Source: Aquificaceae bacterium
Lineage (GTDB): Bacteria; Aquificota; Aquificia; Aquificales; Aquificaceae
Direction: 5' to 3'
NCBI GenBank assembly: GCA_037925805.1
Contig: JAXSOH010000001.1
Location: 27,748-84,113 of the forward strand
Length of the DNA stretch: 56,366 bases
The notes beneath the pieces were generated by a model. It had not been told where the DNA came from. It searched no databases and worked only from the letters and a program-made list of their open reading frames with translations. Position 1 is the stretch's first letter. Each line of letters begins with the position of its first letter. Below are positions 47,475 to 56,366 of this stretch, piece by piece. The translations under genes were made by a program, and so were the position numbers.

Positions 47475-47503
47475 GTATGAACCTCCATATAATTTTTATA
47501 ACC

Positions 47504-49774
47504 CTACTCCCTATCATTTTCTGACACACCCCTTGTTTTCATTATCACATATTTTGCCATAAAAAGTGCATTCCTCTTAACGGTATAGTCCTTATCTGTC
47601 TCTATAAGGGTTTTCACAAACTTTTCACGCTCTCCCCCTTTCACGTTTCTGTGAATCTGGTAATAGAAAAGTGGATAAAACTTCCACCATTTCTCCTTAC
47701 GGTTTTCTCTGAAGTATTTCATCAACATGTATATGCGATAAAAGGTTGACCTGCCTATGTATCCCTCTTTGATAAACTGCTCCAGTTTCTTTGAATTGTT
47801 AATGCCATCCTTTAGCTCCTCTTGGGTAAGGATTTCGTTAAGTATAGAAAAGTGAGGAAGATCCTCGGATTTCTCGCCTTCGGAAATTATTCTTGTTTTT
47901 TCCCTTTTTACACTTTTTTCCTCTACCTCCGCAAACTCTCCTGCAAAACGCACTGGCACTTCTGGTCTATCTATATGAAAGCCCACGGAGAAGTTCATAA
48001 TAGGGTTACAGGCGGTATATTCGTCAAAATCCTCCTTTAGCTCCAAAATCTTTTCCACAAGCTGGTCCCAAGGTCCTATCAAGAAAAAGTCATCTCCACC
48101 CGCATACAGGGTATATATGTCAGAGCCCTTGAGGAACTCGTTGAGATATCCAGAAAAGAAAAGGTCAAGACTTCTGCTCAAAGTGGCAAGCCTTGAGAGA
48201 GAATACTCCTTTATAGACTGGAATATAAGACCCAAAAAGTCCACATCACCCCTTGCAAAGGCTATCTTTTTGTCCCCTTTTGCCTTCTCAGAAAGGTTTT
48301 CAAAATCCAAGGTAGAGCCTTCTTCATTCTTTGGAACATAGTTGGCAAAAAAGAGAAAGCCATCCGCTCCCTTCTCAAGAAAGTCTGTATGGTTTATGAG
48401 ATAGACCTCCTCAAGGTCTTCCTCTGGCTCTTCTAACAGATAAACACCCCCTATGCCCTCAAGGTAAAAACCCCACCTATTTAACCACATATGCGTATCA
48501 AAGGCTATATACTTAGCCTTAGTGAGAGCGTTGCCAAGCTCAAGAAAGACTTCACACCATTTACAGACTTCCTTTCCTTCTTCTACCATTCCCCACATGC
48601 AAGAGGGACACATACCATCCCCCTTCCCATAAGCAAGCTCTTCAAAAACTTCCATAGTTAGGCTAAACTTTCTCTTCTTTTGCAGGCTTATCCTTTCGTG
48701 TAGCCTTTTCATGGTTTCCCTAAAACCCTCACCACTAAGACCCTCCTCCCTCGTATCAACCCAAGAAAGCACAAAGCCCAGCTTACCACCAAACTCCCTT
48801 ATAAAAGCCTCTTCTACCCTCTTGGCAAAACTCCTTAGCTTGTCTTCTATGCCCTCCTCGTAGCCAAAAAGTGCCAAAAACTTCCCTCCACCTGCGTATA
48901 TAAGATTACATAGAGGATATTCCAATTCTTTTAGCAATGCCCTTGCCACAAGATGAGGAAGCACCGAAAGGAAAAAGCTCCTACCCCTTAACCTCTTTGC
49001 CACACCCTTTATATTGGTAAGAGAAAAGAGAAACTCTTGAATTCCACTTATATCACCATCCACTAACAAAAACCTTTCCTTATTTGTGGAAAGTGCACAG
49101 GCTATGGCAGAGACCATCCTTGAGTGGTCAAAAAGGGATATGTCTGGATAGTGTCTTGTGCCTCTTTCCCTGTCATAGGTAGACGCAGGGACGCACCAAC
49201 AGTATTTGTAAAAGAGATGATAAACCTTTAGAAAAGCCTTGTGAAGGTCGGAAAAGTCTACCTTCTTTAACTCGGACTCAAATGCTTTGAGAATGTCCGC
49301 ATATTTATCTACAGGAGTGCCTTCCTTTGGAAATAGCACATCTTTAGTTAGCTCAAGCTTATTGAGTTCTATGTAGTATTCTTTGTCTAACTGTGAGTTA
49401 AAAAAGTTAACCTCAAGACCCAAAAAGATAGGTTTTAGCCTTTTTATGGCTTTATCGGAGATGTCTTCTTGTTCTTGACTTCTTTCTTTGCTTGAGTTTA
49501 TGTCCGCAACTTGGTATAGCTTTTGCTCTTGGTTCTTGGGCTTGTGATGAAAGGCAGAGTCAAGCACCTTTTGGTAATCGTCTGGGCTTAACTTGTTTTT
49601 TAATGCCCTCTCTATAAACTTATAAGACAGCTCCGCATGAGCGTAGCCAAAACCTTCCTTACCTTCTGCCTTTTCCCCCGCTCTGTCTAACAGCTTACCA
49701 ACATCATGAAAAAGACCCCCAAGTGCCAACAAAACCCTATACCTGTATTTATCCATAGCTCCCCTCACTAACAT
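47504..49774 (-). CDS. cas10: Cas10/Csm1 with HD nuclease and GGDD cyclase palm (start may be MDKY at 49756)
   Basis: LFHDVGK, DISLFDH, GDISGIQ, LRGRSF, CxxC..CxxC Zn finger, YAGGDDF. Confidence 0.96.
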   Translation of the reverse strand: MLVRGAMDKYRYRVLLALGGLFHDVGKLLDRAGEKAEGKEGFGYAHAELSYKFIERALKNKLSPDDYQKVLDSAFHHKPKNQEQKLYQVADINSSKERSQEQEDISDKAIKRLKPIFLGLEVNFFNSQLDKEYYIELNKLELTKDVLFPKEGTPVDKYADILKAFESELKKVDFSDLHKAFLKVYHLFYKYCWCVPASTYDRERGTRHYPDISLFDHSRMVSAIACALSTNKERFLLVDGDISGIQEFLFSLTNIKGVAKRLRGRSFFLSVLPHLVARALLKELEYPLCNLIYAGGGKFLALFGYEEGIEDKLRSFAKRVEEAFIREFGGKLGFVLSWVDTREEGLSGEGFRETMKRLHERISLQKKRKFSLTMEVFEELAYGKGDGMCPSCMWGMVEEGKEVCKWCEVFLELGNALTKAKYIAFDTHMWLNRWGFYLEGIGGVYLLEEPEEDLEEVYLINHTDFLEKGADGFLFFANYVPKNEEGSTLDFENLSEKAKGDKKIAFARGDVDFLGLIFQSIKEYSLSRLATLSRSLDLFFSGYLNEFLKGSDIYTLYAGGDDFFLIGPWDQLVEKILELKEDFDEYTACNPIMNFSVGFHIDRPEVPVRFAGEFAEVEEKSVKREKTRIISEGEKSEDLPHFSILNEILTQEELKDGINNSKKLEQFIKEGYIGRSTFYRIYMLMKYFRENRKEKWWKFYPLFYYQIHRNVKGGEREKFVKTLIETDKDYTVKRNALFMAKYVIMKTRGVSENDRE

Positions 49775-49848
49775 TGTAATATAAAACTTCCCTTTTTTGG
49801 GTTTTCTGACATCTGGTAAAATACCCCTCGTGCATTATAATTAAACCC

Positions 49849-50271
49849 ATGAGGTCTTTGGCTTTTATCCTTCTATTGAGTTTCTTGCTTTCTTATCCTT
49901 TAGCTAAAGAAATTCCCTTCACTCTTGAAGATAGGGATAGGATTATAAGGCTTGAGGAAAACCAGAGAGAGGGTTTTAAAGCTCTAATACAAAGGATAGA
50001 TGATACAAACAAAAGGATAGATGATATAAACAAAAGGATAGATGACACGAACAAGAGGATAGATGACATGATAAGTATTATGCTCTGGGGTTTTGGTGTT
50101 TTGTTTGCTGGTATGATGAGCCTTATAGGTTTTGTGATATGGGATAGGAGAAGTGCACTTGCTCCAGCTATTAGGAAGACAAAGGAGCTTGAAGAAAGAG
50201 AGGAAAAGATTGAAAAGGCTCTCAAGAAACTCGCAGAAAAAAACCCAGAAGTAAAAGAAGCCCTAAAATAA
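49849..50271 (+). CDS. Hypothetical exported/membrane coiled-coil protein with RIDD(T/I)NK heptad repeats
   Basis: Signal peptide, heptad repeats, one internal TM, charged helical tail; TATAAT 7 nt before the ATG. Confidence 0.75.
   Translation: MRSLAFILLLSFLLSYPLAKEIPFTLEDRDRIIRLEENQREGFKALIQRIDDTNKRIDDINKRIDDTNKRIDDMISIMLWGFGVLFAGMMSLIGFVIWDRRSALAPAIRKTKELEEREEKIEKALKKLAEKNPEVKEALK
49993..50067 (+). repeat. 21-bp coding tandem repeat, about 3.5 copies
   Basis: AGGATAGATGA(T/C)A(C/T)(A/G)AACAA(A/G) units at 49993, 50014 and 50035, plus a partial unit at 50056. Confidence 0.9.
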
Positions 50272-51304: not shown

Positions 51305-52030
51305 ATGCCTATTAAACTGGCTCTTAGCTTTAAGGCTGAGGCAAACTTGGAGGTTTCTAATGACCTTATGCATGCCTTTGTCTTTTCCTTGTTTCCACAA
51401 GAGGTAGCAGAAAAGGTTCACAAGAGAGAGGAAAAGCCTTTTAGCCTTAGAGGTTGGAACTTTACAGAGAGGGGTTTATTGCTTAGGATTTCTCTTTTGG
51501 AAGACCAGCTTTTTCCAGCGTTGGTTAGTCATTTTTACCTTTCTAAAAATGGCTTTAGGCTAAAGGATGTGGAGCTACAGCCTGTTGTGCCAAGTGGTCT
51601 AAGAGAAGAGGAGTCCATATCTTACCAAGAACTCTTGGAGCTTGAAGCCTGCGAGCACTACTCGGTGGACTTTATAAAACCTACCACCTTTAGAAGAGGT
51701 CGTTGGGACTATCCCCTTCCAGACCCACCCGCATTGTTTAGCAGTCTCTACAAAAAATGGAAGAGCCATCACCCTTTTCCTTTGGAAGAGGACAAGCTCC
51801 TACATCAGGTCTATTCCAAAGTTTACATCTTAGCACACAAAATAAGGGTTGAGACGGTGGAGCTTTCCTTTGGAAAACTTAGAGGTTTTGTGGGAAATGT
51901 GGTCTTTGGTGTCAATGACAAGGAGCTCTCAAGGTTAGTTCATGCCTTGCTTAAGTTTGGCGAGTTTTCTGGAGTTGGAAGAAAAAGTGCCATGGGTATG
52001 GGAGTTATGGTCTTGCGTAAAGAAACCTAA
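51305..52030 (+). CDS. cas6: CRISPR precursor processing endoribonuclease Cas6
   Basis: H...KPFS, PTTF, PLPDP, GFVG, C-terminal G-rich loop GVGRKSAMGMG. Confidence 0.93.
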   Translation: MPIKLALSFKAEANLEVSNDLMHAFVFSLFPQEVAEKVHKREEKPFSLRGWNFTERGLLLRISLLEDQLFPALVSHFYLSKNGFRLKDVELQPVVPSGLREEESISYQELLELEACEHYSVDFIKPTTFRRGRWDYPLPDPPALFSSLYKKWKSHHPFPLEEDKLLHQVYSKVYILAHKIRVETVELSFGKLRGFVGNVVFGVNDKELSRLVHALLKFGEFSGVGRKSAMGMGVMVLRKET

Positions 52031-52440
52031 GAGTCCCAGCTGGAAGAACCCCAGCTATTCCAGGAAGAGCTACCACTGTCCCAGTCATTGGAGGAATTCC
52101 ACCAATTGTCGTTGCTTGAGTCCCAATGGTTGTTAAAGACATGATACATAGGGCATGATGGGTCCCACATGGCACGGGAAATATCGCAGTCATCGTGGCT
52201 GTCCCACCTTCTTGTGGTGTCGTTGTCAAGGAATGAGTGGCTGTCCCGAAGTTTTCTGTCTTCATCCTCAAGAGGGCTATGAGAGTCTAAGGAGCTCGTG
52301 TTTGCTGGGCTGGTGTTTTCCCACTGCTCTGAAGGGTTAGAAGTCCCAGGGTGCACGTTAGAAGAGAAGGCTTCGTCGTTGGCATCTTTTATCTTCCAGA
52401 GGAGAAAGAGGACTGCCAGCAGTAAAAGTATCCATTCCAT
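52027..52440 (-). CDS. Hypothetical protein: N-terminal membrane anchor plus low-complexity S/D/N/W-rich tail
   Basis: Strong SD AGGAGGTGA; MEWILLLLAVLFLLWK anchor; repeated W-[DN]-S; stop overlaps the cas6 stop. Confidence 0.75.
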   Translation of the reverse strand: MEWILLLLAVLFLLWKIKDANDEAFSSNVHPGTSNPSEQWENTSPANTSSLDSHSPLEDEDRKLRDSHSFLDNDTTRRWDSHDDCDISRAMWDPSCPMYHVFNNHWDSSNDNWWNSSNDWDSGSSSWNSWGSSSWDS

Positions 52441-52456
52441 AGCTCACCTCCTATCT

Positions 52457-52543
52457 CTAAGAGTTTGGAAAGGCTTCATCGTTGGATTTTTTAATTCTCC
52501 ATATAAGAAAGGCAAGCACCAAAGCCAAAACTAACCACTCCAT
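52457..52543 (-). CDS. 28-aa membrane peptide MEWLVLALVLAFLIWRIKKSNDEAFPNS, paralog of the N-terminus of the downstream gene
   Basis: Translated by hand; ATG lies 2 nt after the calpL stop with SD GGAGG; aligns without gaps to MEWILLLLAVLFLLWKIKDANDEAFSSN. Confidence 0.7.
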   Translation of the reverse strand: MEWLVLALVLAFLIWRIKKSNDEAFPNS

Positions 52544-52545
52544 AG

Positions 52546-54012
52546 CTACCCTCCCATAGTTATAATGTATCCTCCCTCTCGCAAACTTCTTAGAAACTCA
52601 AGGTCAAGCACCCGCTCGTAGGTTCTGTCTTTGCTACTGTAGTTGTATATGTATCCCTTGTCGTAGTGTCCAAAGGCTACACCAAAAAGATATGCCAAAG
52701 CGACAGGGCAGGAAAAGAAAAAGTGAATTGCCTTATAGGCTTTCTTACCCTTTACCTCTTGCACCGCAGAGGAGACTTCTTGAGCTATCCTCTTGAAAGT
52801 GCTCGGCTCAAGGTTTCCCCTATAGGACTCTGTGGTAAGGAGCAAAAGGTCCGCAAGAATGCCCTTGCTCTCTAAGAAATGCTCCACGTCCGCAGTGGGA
52901 TTGTGGTGGGAGAAAAAGAGGACTACCGCAAGGTCTTCTCCACCTTCTTTTAGTTCACTTTTCACAAATTGGTAGTCCCTTGTGTGCTCCTTTATCTCCC
53001 TTGTGTTTTGTAGGTCAATGGGAAAGTATTTTCTCTCACTGCTATGGTAATGGTAGAAAACAGAGGGTCTTGTGTGTCCGTAGAGAATTCCCAAGGCAAA
53101 GGAAAGGCTCGCAGGTCCGTTTACCGCAATATGAGCTTTTAGCCTACCTATTAGGGTATAGTCAAGGATGCTTATGAGCCCAAAAAACCTTTTTGCAGTT
53201 TCCTGCCATCCGATACCGCTTAGCTGACTTGTTTGTATGACAAGTTTTGCTGGGTCTATGCGATGGATATTTTTTAAGTTTAGTAGGTTTTCCTCCTTAT
53301 GGAAAAACTCCTCAAGCCTTAGGTGGTCAATGGAAACCGCCACAGGAACTTCCACAATATTTGCACTTAGCCAATTCAAAAGGTCATCCACCTTAGGAAG
53401 ATGAAAGGGCATAGCCAAGTGCATATTGAACCTTTCACACACCTCAGACTTTTTATCCAAAGAGTCCACCTTCACTATGCTACCATCCTTTCTAACTCCA
53501 CCGCTCCAACAGAGGTTTGGTGGTAGCCTTTTCTTTTCCGCATCCATACACAAAGCCAAGGTCAAAGAAAGTTGAAAGCTATTTCCCACAAACTCACTGT
53601 CAAAGATAACACTAACAGACCCAGACACAAAGCCTTTGGAACGCAGATATTCCACCACTGGAGTGATATACCTTTTCTTTTCTGGTAGGTTGCAAAAGAC
53701 CTCTGGTGTATCCTTTATTGCCAGACCCCTTATTAGCTTGCCATCCCTTTCAGAGACCGCAGGAAACTCAAACTCCACATAGGGATTTTCCAAAAGTGCC
53801 TTTGCGACCGCCTTTTTTATACCCAAAGCCTTGGCAAGTTTTTCCTCATCAAAATACCTTTCAGAAAGGCGTAGATACTTTACCAAAGCAAAATGCACCC
53901 CAGGGCTTAGATAATCCCACTGCCTTATAAGGTCTACAAGGACTTCTTCCAAGTCTCCCCTGTAGAGAAACTCTATAAGGTCTTTTTCCTTGAAAAGGCT
54001 AAAGTTCCACAA
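52546..54012 (-). CDS. calpL: CalpL-like cyclic-oligoadenylate-activated Lon protease-SAVED fusion
   Basis: Lon-type dyad: GNS145F...K188, 43 residues apart, with the SGGV.KDG.I.KV segment. C-terminal SAVED motifs (IHFFFSCPVALAYLFG, YIYNY). TTG start with GGAGG SD; type III context. Confidence 0.88.
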   Translation of the reverse strand: MWNFSLFKEKDLIEFLYRGDLEEVLVDLIRQWDYLSPGVHFALVKYLRLSERYFDEEKLAKALGIKKAVAKALLENPYVEFEFPAVSERDGKLIRGLAIKDTPEVFCNLPEKKRYITPVVEYLRSKGFVSGSVSVIFDSEFVGNSFQLSLTLALCMDAEKKRLPPNLCWSGGVRKDGSIVKVDSLDKKSEVCERFNMHLAMPFHLPKVDDLLNWLSANIVEVPVAVSIDHLRLEEFFHKEENLLNLKNIHRIDPAKLVIQTSQLSGIGWQETAKRFFGLISILDYTLIGRLKAHIAVNGPASLSFALGILYGHTRPSVFYHYHSSERKYFPIDLQNTREIKEHTRDYQFVKSELKEGGEDLAVVLFFSHHNPTADVEHFLESKGILADLLLLTTESYRGNLEPSTFKRIAQEVSSAVQEVKGKKAYKAIHFFFSCPVALAYLFGVAFGHYDKGYIYNYSSKDRTYERVLDLEFLRSLREGGYIITMGG

Positions 54013-54772
54013 CCTTTAATTCCTCCGGAATGTTTATTCCAAAGAAGTTTCCAAGAATCTCCAACCTTGGAGACTCCACCTCACCCTCAAAGACCACCAC
54101 AGAACCCAAAAGCACCCTAACAACCTTACCCACAAACTCTATAGGCAAGTATAGCCTTAGCAAACCCTCCTCCAAAACCACAAAGAAATTCCCTACTTTG
54201 AAGTATCTATTATCCGCTGCGAGAGCATAAGTGCGTATCTCTTCAAGAGCCTTTTCTGTATCTGGTGAAAGCCTTATAACTTGCGCCTCTTCTCTTTCTG
54301 CAAGCTCCGCCTGAGCCAACAATGAATACATAGTCCACTTTGCCCAACGCTTAGAATTGAGTTTGATGAACCTTCTCGTGGCAAACTTTAGCTCCTTTTC
54401 CTTTGACAGGTATTCTTCTATTTTGCTTAGCTCCTCTTCAGGCAGTTTACCTATGACCTGACTGTAGTTTTCTATAAGCTCCCTTCTTAAATAATCCCAT
54501 ACTGGAACCACACCCAGTTTAAGCCCACGAGACCTTAGCTCGTAAATAGGCGTGGAGTTAGGTAAAACCTGCAAATAGGAAGTGAGAGGAACTGTTTTGT
54601 ATAGACCCTCTTGGACTTCTTGCAAAATAACAAACCTCTCTACAGGCACAGACCACAACTCCCTTATCTGCCCCACTTTCGGCTCCTTTTTATGAGGAAC
54701 TTCCAGAAGCTCATTGCTCCCTTCCTTCAAGTTCTTCTCGTATATCTCCAAAAGCTCCAATTCCAAACTCAT
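53999..54772 (-). CDS. calpT: CalpT-like anti-sigma factor / protease substrate
   Basis: Lies between the sigma factor and Lon-SAVED genes; MazF-fold-like N-terminus (PKVGQI...VPLTSY) and small beta-rich C-terminal domain. Confidence 0.8.
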   Translation of the reverse strand: MSLELELLEIYEKNLKEGSNELLEVPHKKEPKVGQIRELWSVPVERFVILQEVQEGLYKTVPLTSYLQVLPNSTPIYELRSRGLKLGVVPVWDYLRRELIENYSQVIGKLPEEELSKIEEYLSKEKELKFATRRFIKLNSKRWAKWTMYSLLAQAELAEREEAQVIRLSPDTEKALEEIRTYALAADNRYFKVGNFFVVLEEGLLRLYLPIEFVGKVVRVLLGSVVVFEGEVESPRLEILGNFFGINIPEELKVVEL

Positions 54773-55434
54773 GGCACGTCTCCTCTTTCATTACATATAT
54801 AACCCCTTTTTTGACAAACCTCTGACAAAAACCTTTCCACCATCGCCCTTATCTCCTCTGGAGAGGCATCACCTAAGATATCCTTCAGTTTACCCTTCCG
54901 TAGCCTTTCCCACCTCTTATATAGGTTATCCTTAGAAATATCCCTCAGTTCTATCTCCGAGTTATATAGATACTTATAAAAGTAATAGCATAGCACTACC
55001 ATATCTCCGTCTTTGAGATTTTTCATAAGTGTCTCAAAAAGCGTGCTACCCTCCACCTCCGCAAAGTGATGTCTCGTATCCCTGAGGTTATCTTCATAAA
55101 CTACAGGCTTTGCATCCTCCTCTTCAAAAACCTGTTCTTGAAGGCTGTAAACCTCTATCTTTTCACCGTTTATAATGTCTACTAAGAAGTTTCTTATGAG
55201 GGTTTTCAAGTAATGCAGGTTTATATACTCTAACCTCTGCAGATAGTCTTTGTTGTTTATTAGCCTAAGCCTCAGCTCAGATAGGACTTCCTCCTCGTAG
55301 TCATCTCCGAATTTTCTCCTTAGCAAGGCGTCCATATACTGGCTCAATAAGGACCTTATTAGTTTTTTCATATAGTTCTCTTCTTTTGCACCGCCATATA
55401 AAAAGCCAGAGATAAGTTGTTTGTAGTCCTTCAT
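54769..55434 (-). CDS. calpS: CalpS-like ECF sigma factor
   Basis: Region 2-like YLKTLIRNFLVD and region 4-like ISKDNLYKRWERLR; ATGA-coupled to calpT. Confidence 0.78.
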   Translation of the reverse strand: MKDYKQLISGFLYGGAKEENYMKKLIRSLLSQYMDALLRRKFGDDYEEEVLSELRLRLINNKDYLQRLEYINLHYLKTLIRNFLVDIINGEKIEVYSLQEQVFEEEDAKPVVYEDNLRDTRHHFAEVEGSTLFETLMKNLKDGDMVVLCYYFYKYLYNSEIELRDISKDNLYKRWERLRKGKLKDILGDASPEEIRAMVERFLSEVCQKRGYICNERGDVP

Positions 55435-55883
55435 CTAAAATACTCCCTTCTTAAGCTATCAAGAAACTCAAGGTCTCTACACGTGCCACAAAATTCGTAT
55501 TTAAACTCTCTAAACCTATCCTTATGCACCATATAGGCAAGCACCTCTTGTCTGTTTCTGTCTCTTAAGATAAAGCACTCTACATCAAGGCTTTGACATG
55601 CTTTATTTTTACCCCTATAGCAAAGACTGAGGTCTACCCTGCGTTTTGAGTAGGTTTTTGTAGTTAGAAAGACAATAAGGTAAAAGTCCCTTTCAAGCCT
55701 TCCTATAAAAGGTCTTCTCCTTCTCGCCTTGTATACTCCAAGGTCTAACCTAAGAAGGTCTTCAAGCCTTGATAGTGTCTCATCGGTAAAAACTCCCAAG
55801 AACCTCTCCCCAGAAGCCACAATTTTCTCTTCGTCGCCTAACTTTTTCTCAAAGAGTTTCTCAAAACCCTTGAGCTTTTCCAT
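55431..55883 (-). CDS. Hypothetical Cys-containing protein with a PemK/MazF-like motif
   Basis: RRRRPFIG...LIVFLTTK resembles the PemK/MazF K-x-R-P...V-P-h-T-T motif; ATGA-coupled to calpS; TATAAT upstream. Confidence 0.55.
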   Translation of the reverse strand: MEKLKGFEKLFEKKLGDEEKIVASGERFLGVFTDETLSRLEDLLRLDLGVYKARRRRPFIGRLERDFYLIVFLTTKTYSKRRVDLSLCYRGKNKACQSLDVECFILRDRNRQEVLAYMVHKDRFREFKYEFCGTCRDLEFLDSLRREYFR

Positions 55884-55902
55884 TTGGTAATAAGATTATA
55901 GC

Positions 55903-56310
55903 TTAGTCCTCTTTGACTGCTACCATATCAAAGATAACTAACTGCTTTTTGTTGTTTACGTGGCACATGCGAATATCATTGTCAAAGGTCAAAGAAGAGG
56001 CTACCACGCTAAAGGTTTTAGTCCCAGCGGTTATGTCTATTAAGATTTCCTTTTCCTTGTAGCCCTGTGCCTTGAGACTTTCTATTGCTTTGTTGAAAGT
56101 TCTTTGTAGGTTCAACATATCCTCATAGTCCACTGCCTCACTAAATTCAAAAATGTGGTGTTCTATCCCTGCATTTGCCCGCATATATTCAACGAACTTC
56201 TCAGAATGTTCTGCACCTTCTGGAGAAGGAATTACTACAACTTTCTTTAACTCAGCACCTTGTTCCAAGCACTTTTTTATCAAAAATTCCTGCGGGAGTG
56301 TTTCATCCAT
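55903..56310 (-). CDS. CARF-domain protein (start uncertain; frame stays open to the window edge)
   Basis: VVVIPS, VDYED, ILIDITAGTK CARF motif II, followed by a helix and the CHV strand. Confidence 0.78.
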   Translation of the reverse strand: MDETLPQEFLIKKCLEQGAELKKVVVIPSPEGAEHSEKFVEYMRANAGIEHHIFEFSEAVDYEDMLNLQRTFNKAIESLKAQGYKEKEILIDITAGTKTFSVVASSLTFDNDIRMCHVNNKKQLVIFDMVAVKED

Positions 56311-56340
56311 TGTGTAAAAATAAAGTAAGGAGGTGTTAAC

Positions 56341-56366
56341 ATGAAACAGCCAAGCAAGGAGAAAAT
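56341..56366 (+). CDS. Possible start of a divergent gene running off the window (MKQPSKEK...)
   Basis: Near-perfect SD TAAGGAGGT 6 nt before the ATG; only 8 codons visible. Confidence 0.4.

Follow-up and report, generated by a model that had tools for sequence, protein, structure and literature searches.

What does the short gap between calpL and the next gene of an Aquificaceae CRISPR locus encode, and what switches the surrounding operon on? The window, by which we mean the whole stretch of 56,366 nucleotides analysed, holds cas10/csm1 and csm2-5 of a type III Cas10 complex near the calp genes. For homologues, the accessible part of the preprint describes a cascade in which CalpL is switched on by cA4, CalpT undergoes cleavage and degradation, and CalpS associates with RNA polymerase (bioRxiv 10.1101/2024.05.08.593097). 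The features needed below all lie on the minus strand and are given in the order of transcription.

55431..55883, minus: conserved gene of ~150 aa with no family match, upstream of calpS in most Calp loci viewed
54769..55434, minus: calpS, ECF-like sigma factor, putatively assigned from gene order and predicted fold
54798..54827, minus: exact TGTCAG-N18-GTTATA motif, 25 nt 5' of the calpT start, in the 3' end of calpS
53999..54772, minus: calpT, anti-sigma factor by homology (PADLOC CRISPR-T, E 2e-13)
52546..54012, minus: calpL, Lon-SAVED protease (SAVED; PDB 7QDA CalpL, E 3e-31)
52550..52554, minus: Shine-Dalgarno (SD) core of the 28-codon ORF, within the last calpL codons
52457..52543, minus: 28-codon ORF, predicted helix-only truncated paralog of the 137-aa membrane-protein family (ORF call, alignment, AF2 helix)
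52444..52452, minus: SD of the 137-aa gene, 5 nt past the stop of the short ORF
52027..52440, minus: 137-aa single-pass membrane protein, N-terminal helix, no family match
49782..49811, minus: the motif with one mismatch, just before cas10/csm1
47497..47526, minus: exact motif, 22 nt 5' of csm2, in the 3' end of cas10

The 488-aa calpL product contains the SAVED region and matches 7QDA over residues 32-466. Directly upstream, calpT encodes a protein with 20% identity to a 271-aa homologue. The product of calpS is predicted to fold into two helical domains. Its top fold matches include sigma-E, SigW, AlgU and CnrH but are weak (E 0.3-1.4, Z 5-6); the position of calpS upstream of calpT is conserved across loci. 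CalpL, CalpT and Cas10 are each recognisable here, and the modelled fold weakly confirms the sigma factor. The locus resembles the CalpL-CalpT-CalpS cascade in its calpS-calpT-calpL order, its SAVED-Lon protein homologous to 7QDA and its adjoining type III-A locus. It differs in that the calpT-calpL operon bears two extra membrane genes. Past the 137-aa gene lie Cas6, an array-like repeat region and the type III-A operon. Between cas10 and the repeat region, a 140-aa ORF on the plus strand (49849-50271) begins with a signal-like sequence, contains coiled-coil repeats as well as a second hydrophobic stretch, and gave only weak library matches. The ~150-aa gene upstream of calpS matched nothing in Pfam, NCBIfam, PADLOC or PHROGs; it also occurs in Caldimicrobium, is doubled in G092, G094 and G095, and may be a fourth Calp component. 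At one further locus (L156 1738-3660, genome G094), calpT and calpL share a single 640-aa frame, which is a fusion or an assembly error.

A reading made from the letters alone had placed an unannotated membrane peptide directly after calpL. This is borne out on the minus strand: the ORF runs from 52543 to 52457, comprises 28 codons and a TAG, and begins 2 nt past the stop codon of calpL. Between its end and the ATG of the 137-aa gene lie 16 nt. A plus-strand frame over the same positions is not the ORF meant. As that reading had also said, both genes have an SD, GGAGG standing 6 nt 5' of each ATG. The four bases said to precede both start codons are shared here and in G011 and L038, but the last base differs in G008, G015 and G024. 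Since its SD sits in the last calpL codons, the ORF is likely translated by coupling to calpL. No promoter of its own was found, the best match to TGTCAG-N18-GTTATA having four mismatches, and no hairpin hiding its SD was stronger than in shuffles. The exact 28-aa sequence is absent from a collection of 15 billion proteins. A search for annotated short forms of 30-41 aa, a range that lies above 28 aa, gave none. RNA run X18 gave a single contig spanning 52367-52535; we set it aside as expression evidence because contig depth cannot rank genes and DNA is possibly present.

The ORF aligns with the 137-aa gene without gaps over codons 1-25, with 15/25 amino acids and 50/75 nucleotides identical, so the claimed colinearity with the N-terminus of the next gene stands. 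The BLOSUM score is 92, and the next best among the 19,019 Met-started 25-mers of the genome is 26. Hence, the homology is far beyond chance. To call the ORF a duplicate of the next gene is too strong. It is as close to an unlinked family member in G018 (15/25 amino acids, 49/75 nt), which also provides the best upstream match (19/30 nt), while the neighbouring 137-aa protein is nearer to its counterparts in G003 (19/25) and G010 (18/25) than to the ORF. We rejected a recent tandem duplication on these grounds. The suggestion of a truncated duplicate was thus right in kind, the ORF being a cut-down paralog, but the paralog is old and is not a copy of its neighbour. Selection on the peptide had further been read from the conservative differences in the transmembrane helix. 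That argument fails, because full-length family members diverge from one another in the same way and such differences are uninformative on the short form.

The ORF matches the one confident helix of the AF2 family model (residues 2-28, pLDDT 93-94) and includes the near-invariant family residues W15, N21, D22 and A24. It shares its final 8 nt with the 137-aa gene; among the long ORFs of the genome, 0/1045 have this ending. The 8-nt match occurs in 3/7 copies; the other four share 6 nt, an ending found at 12/1045 ORF ends. Because both genes end in identical bases before TAG, the ORF most simply, and probably, arose by an internal deletion that stayed in frame and left the native stop in place. 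From the alignments, we conclude that the ORF is an old paralog of the adjacent membrane-protein gene, reduced to its predicted N-terminal membrane helix.

By DNA search, the locus is present in 5/25 genomes of the genus, to which two metagenome contigs can be added. Five full copies are intact (G000, G008, G011, G024 and L038), and the partial copy L039 is intact over the part held. The G015 copy has a +1 frameshift. Among ~30 genes compared, G015 has three more with frameshifts, namely calpS, one of 504 aa and one that is IS-like; these may reflect error or decay. Its calp locus, L133, shows the calpS change as a +2 frameshift near codon 142, with calpT and calpL intact. The calp loci carrying the ORF are 92-97% identical in nucleotides; therefore, persistence of the ORF alone says little. 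The short ORF is confined to one young locus clade, and the other 15 family loci viewed have no short partner. A full-length gene at homologous loci had been named as the sign of a recent truncation. None was seen in the seven loci or in the seven covered runs of eight (X24 lacks cover), and the read contigs, though they lose rare variants, show no joints or insertions at the ORF. Nor did a full-length protein with the N-terminus of the ORF occur among 26 of the 28 profile matches or among 13 exhaustive matches. Small deletions in X11 fall in homopolymers throughout the stretch and were set aside as likely noise.

Variants point, weakly to moderately, to constraint on the ORF. The assemblies hold silent and missense changes in a ratio of 4/1 in the ORF, 49/34 in calpL and 34/45 in the 137-aa gene. 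Reads (eight runs, seven with cover) add one missense change, W15L, which alters a near-invariant position and makes up roughly one third of the depth in one read set. Missense changes in the ORF therefore number 1-2, against 6-10 expected at the calpL silent rate (P 0.0005-0.05). With two missense changes, P is 0.003-0.05, or 0.003-0.07 depending on the test; if the G015 frameshift counts as a third change, it is 0.01-0.12. The silent rate of the ORF (0.17-0.24) is not below that of calpL (0.11-0.16).

We tentatively favour the reading that the peptide is a helix-only companion tuning the full-length 137-aa protein; a dominant-negative or partner role, as proposed from the letters, is possible. 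Almost equally likely is that the ORF is a neutral relic or translation relay, namely the remnant of a deleted paralog, translated by virtue of its position between calpL and the next SD and yielding an inert peptide. Its confinement to one young clade fits this, as does the fact that no other family locus needs a short partner. The G015 frameshift and the W15L read set fit too, and the ORF ends on the family stop, as expected after a deletion. With the read variants included, the test for silent excess is borderline (P 0.02-0.07). Conversely, a relic does not predict so few missense changes at a silent rate no lower than that of calpL, or a break that falls just at the end of the conserved helix. 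The relic reading leaves the promoter reading developed below unaffected.

The full-length partner belongs to a small family with an N-terminal hydrophobic helix, a conserved C-D-x-S-R-A-x-W-D-P-S-C-P-x-Y-H segment and a disordered Ser/Trp/Asp tail. In the AlphaFold model of the 137-aa protein, residues 2-28 form the one confident helix, and the remainder shows little order. No match was found in Pfam, NCBIfam, PADLOC or PHROGs, and an Atlas run on a homologue returned just an Aquificota hypothetical cluster (0.90). By the positive-inside rule, basic residues after a helix mark an inside-facing tail; such residues past the helix here suggest that the tail faces inwards. The phylum set comprised 139 genomes, 138 chosen at a completeness of at least 85% and the source genome. 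Family members occur in 15/139, each of which also has a calpL match, as do 62 genomes of the set in all (Fisher 2e-6, for kin genomes that are not independent); in G018 the calpL match is a SAVED fragment only. Many family genes are unlinked to calp, and on a Caldimicrobium contig one lies two genes from the calp cluster. Three side observations concern this family. In L030 and L041, a TM-CARF gene with two helices has its start within the family gene, under an exact motif. A divergent subfamily (P0028-P0042, L145, L147) replaces the conserved segment with D-P-S-Y-C-x-L-P-G-N-I-Y-Y-H and sits within CRISPR loci in G092 and G096. L039 74-496 is a 140-aa allele with a juxtamembrane segment nearer to the short ORF and to G003 than those of other alleles are, possibly through recombination.

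The motif was first derived from regions upstream of the unlinked family genes, as TGTCAG, 18 nt and GTTATA. The source genome has four exact sites where 0.18 are expected (Poisson 4e-5); with any other spacer from 5 to 40 nt, the count is between 0 and 2. One of the four stands before calpT, one before csm2, one before an operon with cas2-cas1-cas2 at its end and one before a LeoA-like dynamin pair, in each case 5' of an SD and start. At the last of these (L136, G000:C11:20507 onward), the motif heads a LeoA/LeoBC-like dynamin gene pair and a 194-aa membrane gene. The site at 54798..54827 is a candidate promoter for calpT, calpL, the 28-codon ORF and the 137-aa gene. Full-length family genes were viewed at 16 loci. 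The motif stands directly before eight (four exact, one with spacer 19, three with one or two mismatches), four, including the 137-aa gene, are later genes of a motif-headed operon, and four have no motif.

Across the genus, the exact motif occurs in 11/12 Calp-positive genomes (34 sites) and in 0/13 others. At family level, a site is present in 23/26 genomes with a close calpL versus 13/43 others, or in 19/26 versus 13/43 if sites before calpT are left out; the cut-off for a close calpL, E 1e-60, was chosen after the data were seen, and the genomes are related. The three without an exact site are G013, G034 and G080. Outside the family the exact motif is weak (f3 15/39, f2 0/8 and f5 1/22 genomes). 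Sites with spacer 19, which turn up here and there in many genomes, were left out of these counts.

We fetched 54 distinct exact sites, a chosen subset, and labelled the genes that follow from annotation and motif matching. Calp and Cas functions dominate, 30 sites preceding calpT-like or cas genes or operons. The sites lie before calpT-like genes (9), Cas11b-like subunits (7), csm2 (4), cas7 (3), cas10 (2), RAMP matches that we take to be Cmr1-like (2), cmr4 (1) and leaders of cas1-cas2 operons (2). Others precede a family gene or its operon (5), CsgG-like genes (4), gamma-glutamyl cyclotransferase (3), Gly-rich lipoproteins (2, one heading a cas operon) and a dynamin (1); 9 precede other genes or none. 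One site lies in the 496-aa CalpL subfamily, which matches the length of the solved protein. Some placements were observed in passing. In L158, L121, L117 and L162, the motif lies in the 3' end of cas8b, before an internal Cas11b-like small subunit and cas3; this suggests that small subunits are induced on their own, in parallel to csm2 within cas10. In G092 and G094 (L155 4695 and L156 3647), an exact motif overlaps the 3' end of calpL and precedes a Cmr operon. Far from calp, a second, orphan calpT-like gene (L120, G015:C1:752200-755000) has its own exact motif and might serve as an additional anti-sigma brake.

Although the site 5' of calpT overlaps codons of calpS, these do not account for it. 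Beneath the motif, the Leu/Met-Ser-Glu/Asp tripeptide of calpS is coded with TGTCAG in 14/14 genes, versus 27/538 such tripeptides genome-wide. The downstream half is retained in G026 despite a Gly-to-Ser change, and in G050 and G121 the motif lies in mid-calpS, off that tripeptide.

We consider it likely that TGTCAG-N18-GTTATA is a promoter read by CalpS and that its sites outline a candidate regulon, quite apart from any claim about the microprotein. It is improbable, in our view, that the motif is real but combines a housekeeping-sigma promoter with the site of another regulator, travelling with CRISPR cassettes before an operon that cA4 does not induce. GTTATA does resemble the -10 box consensus of sigma-70, and this half alone is common (1813 sites). 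Of eight tested genomes with the motif and no close calpL, six lack calpS (G061, G081, G031, G068, G093 and G099); G061, which is 99% complete in two contigs, has a motif 5' of cas7. A relaxed pattern gave three matches in a Caldimicrobium genome versus two in the control. A site is found 5' of calpT in most Calp loci viewed, but G048 and G137 have calpS and no clear one. Against a housekeeping promoter stands the tie to Calp within the genus, 11/12 versus 0/13. The site before the anti-sigma gene is kept across calpS genes of just 23-66% identity, and no sigma-70 consensus promoter was found at 51900-56366, versus 5.8 in shuffles. As for genomes lacking calpS, orphan sites could outlast the loss of calp.

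The CalpS promoter reading has a close precedent. The accessible text on Csx30/CASP-sigma of type III-E describes a protease-released ECF sigma factor with a motif before cas1 and a membrane-protein gene, and its authors suggest that CRISPR-T and its sigma factor form a parallel case (PMC10028731). We regard this as the closest functional precedent. There, the sensor is Cas7-11-Csx29 and ChIP-seq yielded the motif. The motif described here is a prediction from sequence, and it stands in addition before interference backbones, before the genes of the anti-sigma factor and protease, and at other places in the genome. Work on Calp itself, in the parts accessible, stops at CalpS altering transcription, names no promoter or targets and argues for a reversible response (bioRxiv 10.1101/2024.05.08.593097, PMC11417357, PMC12751052, PMC11229360, bioRxiv 10.1101/2021.12.06.471393). 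Within the literature accessible to us, no CalpS promoter or regulon was found. To the Calp literature as we have it, the present analysis adds a predicted promoter and target set.

Put together, the proposed mechanism would run as follows. By analogy with homologues, cA4 would activate CalpL, which would cut CalpT and release CalpS to read TGTCAG-N18-GTTATA. CalpS would then raise calpT-calpL, that is, its own inhibitor and the ring nuclease, as feedback. It would also raise the Cas interference and adaptation operons, the dynamins and the 137-aa membrane-protein family. A transcript begun at 54798 would extend over calpT and calpL into the short ORF and the 137-aa gene. In this lineage the helix-only peptide, made alongside the full-length protein, would most likely pack against its helix and dilute or tune it. 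As a complete account, this combination of an old helix-only paralog, calpL-coupled translation and a CalpS-type promoter before calpT is our best explanation, though plausible rather than probable. The broadest form seems doubtful: that the motif is the CalpS promoter throughout Aquificota, defining the output of cA4-CalpL signalling, and that the 28-aa microprotein was co-opted in one lineage to tune the membrane family.

Membrane toxins of type I toxin-antitoxin systems and holins are also short, hydrophobic, single-helix products. The peptide is like them in this (mean hydropathy 3.1 over 12 residues) and lies in an operon predicted to be induced by infection, but it is very unlikely to depolarise the cell in the CRISPR response, whether as a toxin or as one half of a holin/antiholin-like pair that includes the 137-aa protein. 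It has no match in Pfam, NCBIfam, PADLOC or PHROGs, and it stems from a family of longer host membrane proteins whose solo full-length genes have the same helix. It stands apart from any endolysin or phage context, and the Calp work accessible to us argues for reversibility. Searches bearing on this idea, which the sequence-only reading had raised, lent it no support. Rfam gave no match over 51900-52900, and hence no antitoxin-like RNA family; the mRNA fold at the ORF is not unusual (z-scores -0.04 to -1.07), leaving room for an antisense RNA; and a viral scan with a 19-nt probe found no copy. Holin/antiholin pairs arise from a dual start in one gene and sit in a phage lysis cassette with an endolysin; these are separate genes in a host CRISPR locus, with no PHROGs match and no lysis cassette.

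On its own, the 28-aa ORF is of modest significance, being a lineage-limited truncated paralog and possibly a regulatory microprotein. The motif has wider consequences. With 30 bp and dozens of natural sites, it makes the question of CalpS targets directly testable. If the promoter reading is true, the output of the cascade would comprise calpT-calpL feedback, and positive feedback would act on cas1-cas2 and on the interference subunits of types III and I. The type III alarm would thus amplify other CRISPR types and spacer acquisition, and it would shut itself off by way of more CalpT and CalpL. Its membrane arm would consist of LeoA-like dynamins, TM-CARF and CsgG-like proteins and the new single-pass family, so that the candidate regulon gives a context to an unannotated family of membrane proteins.
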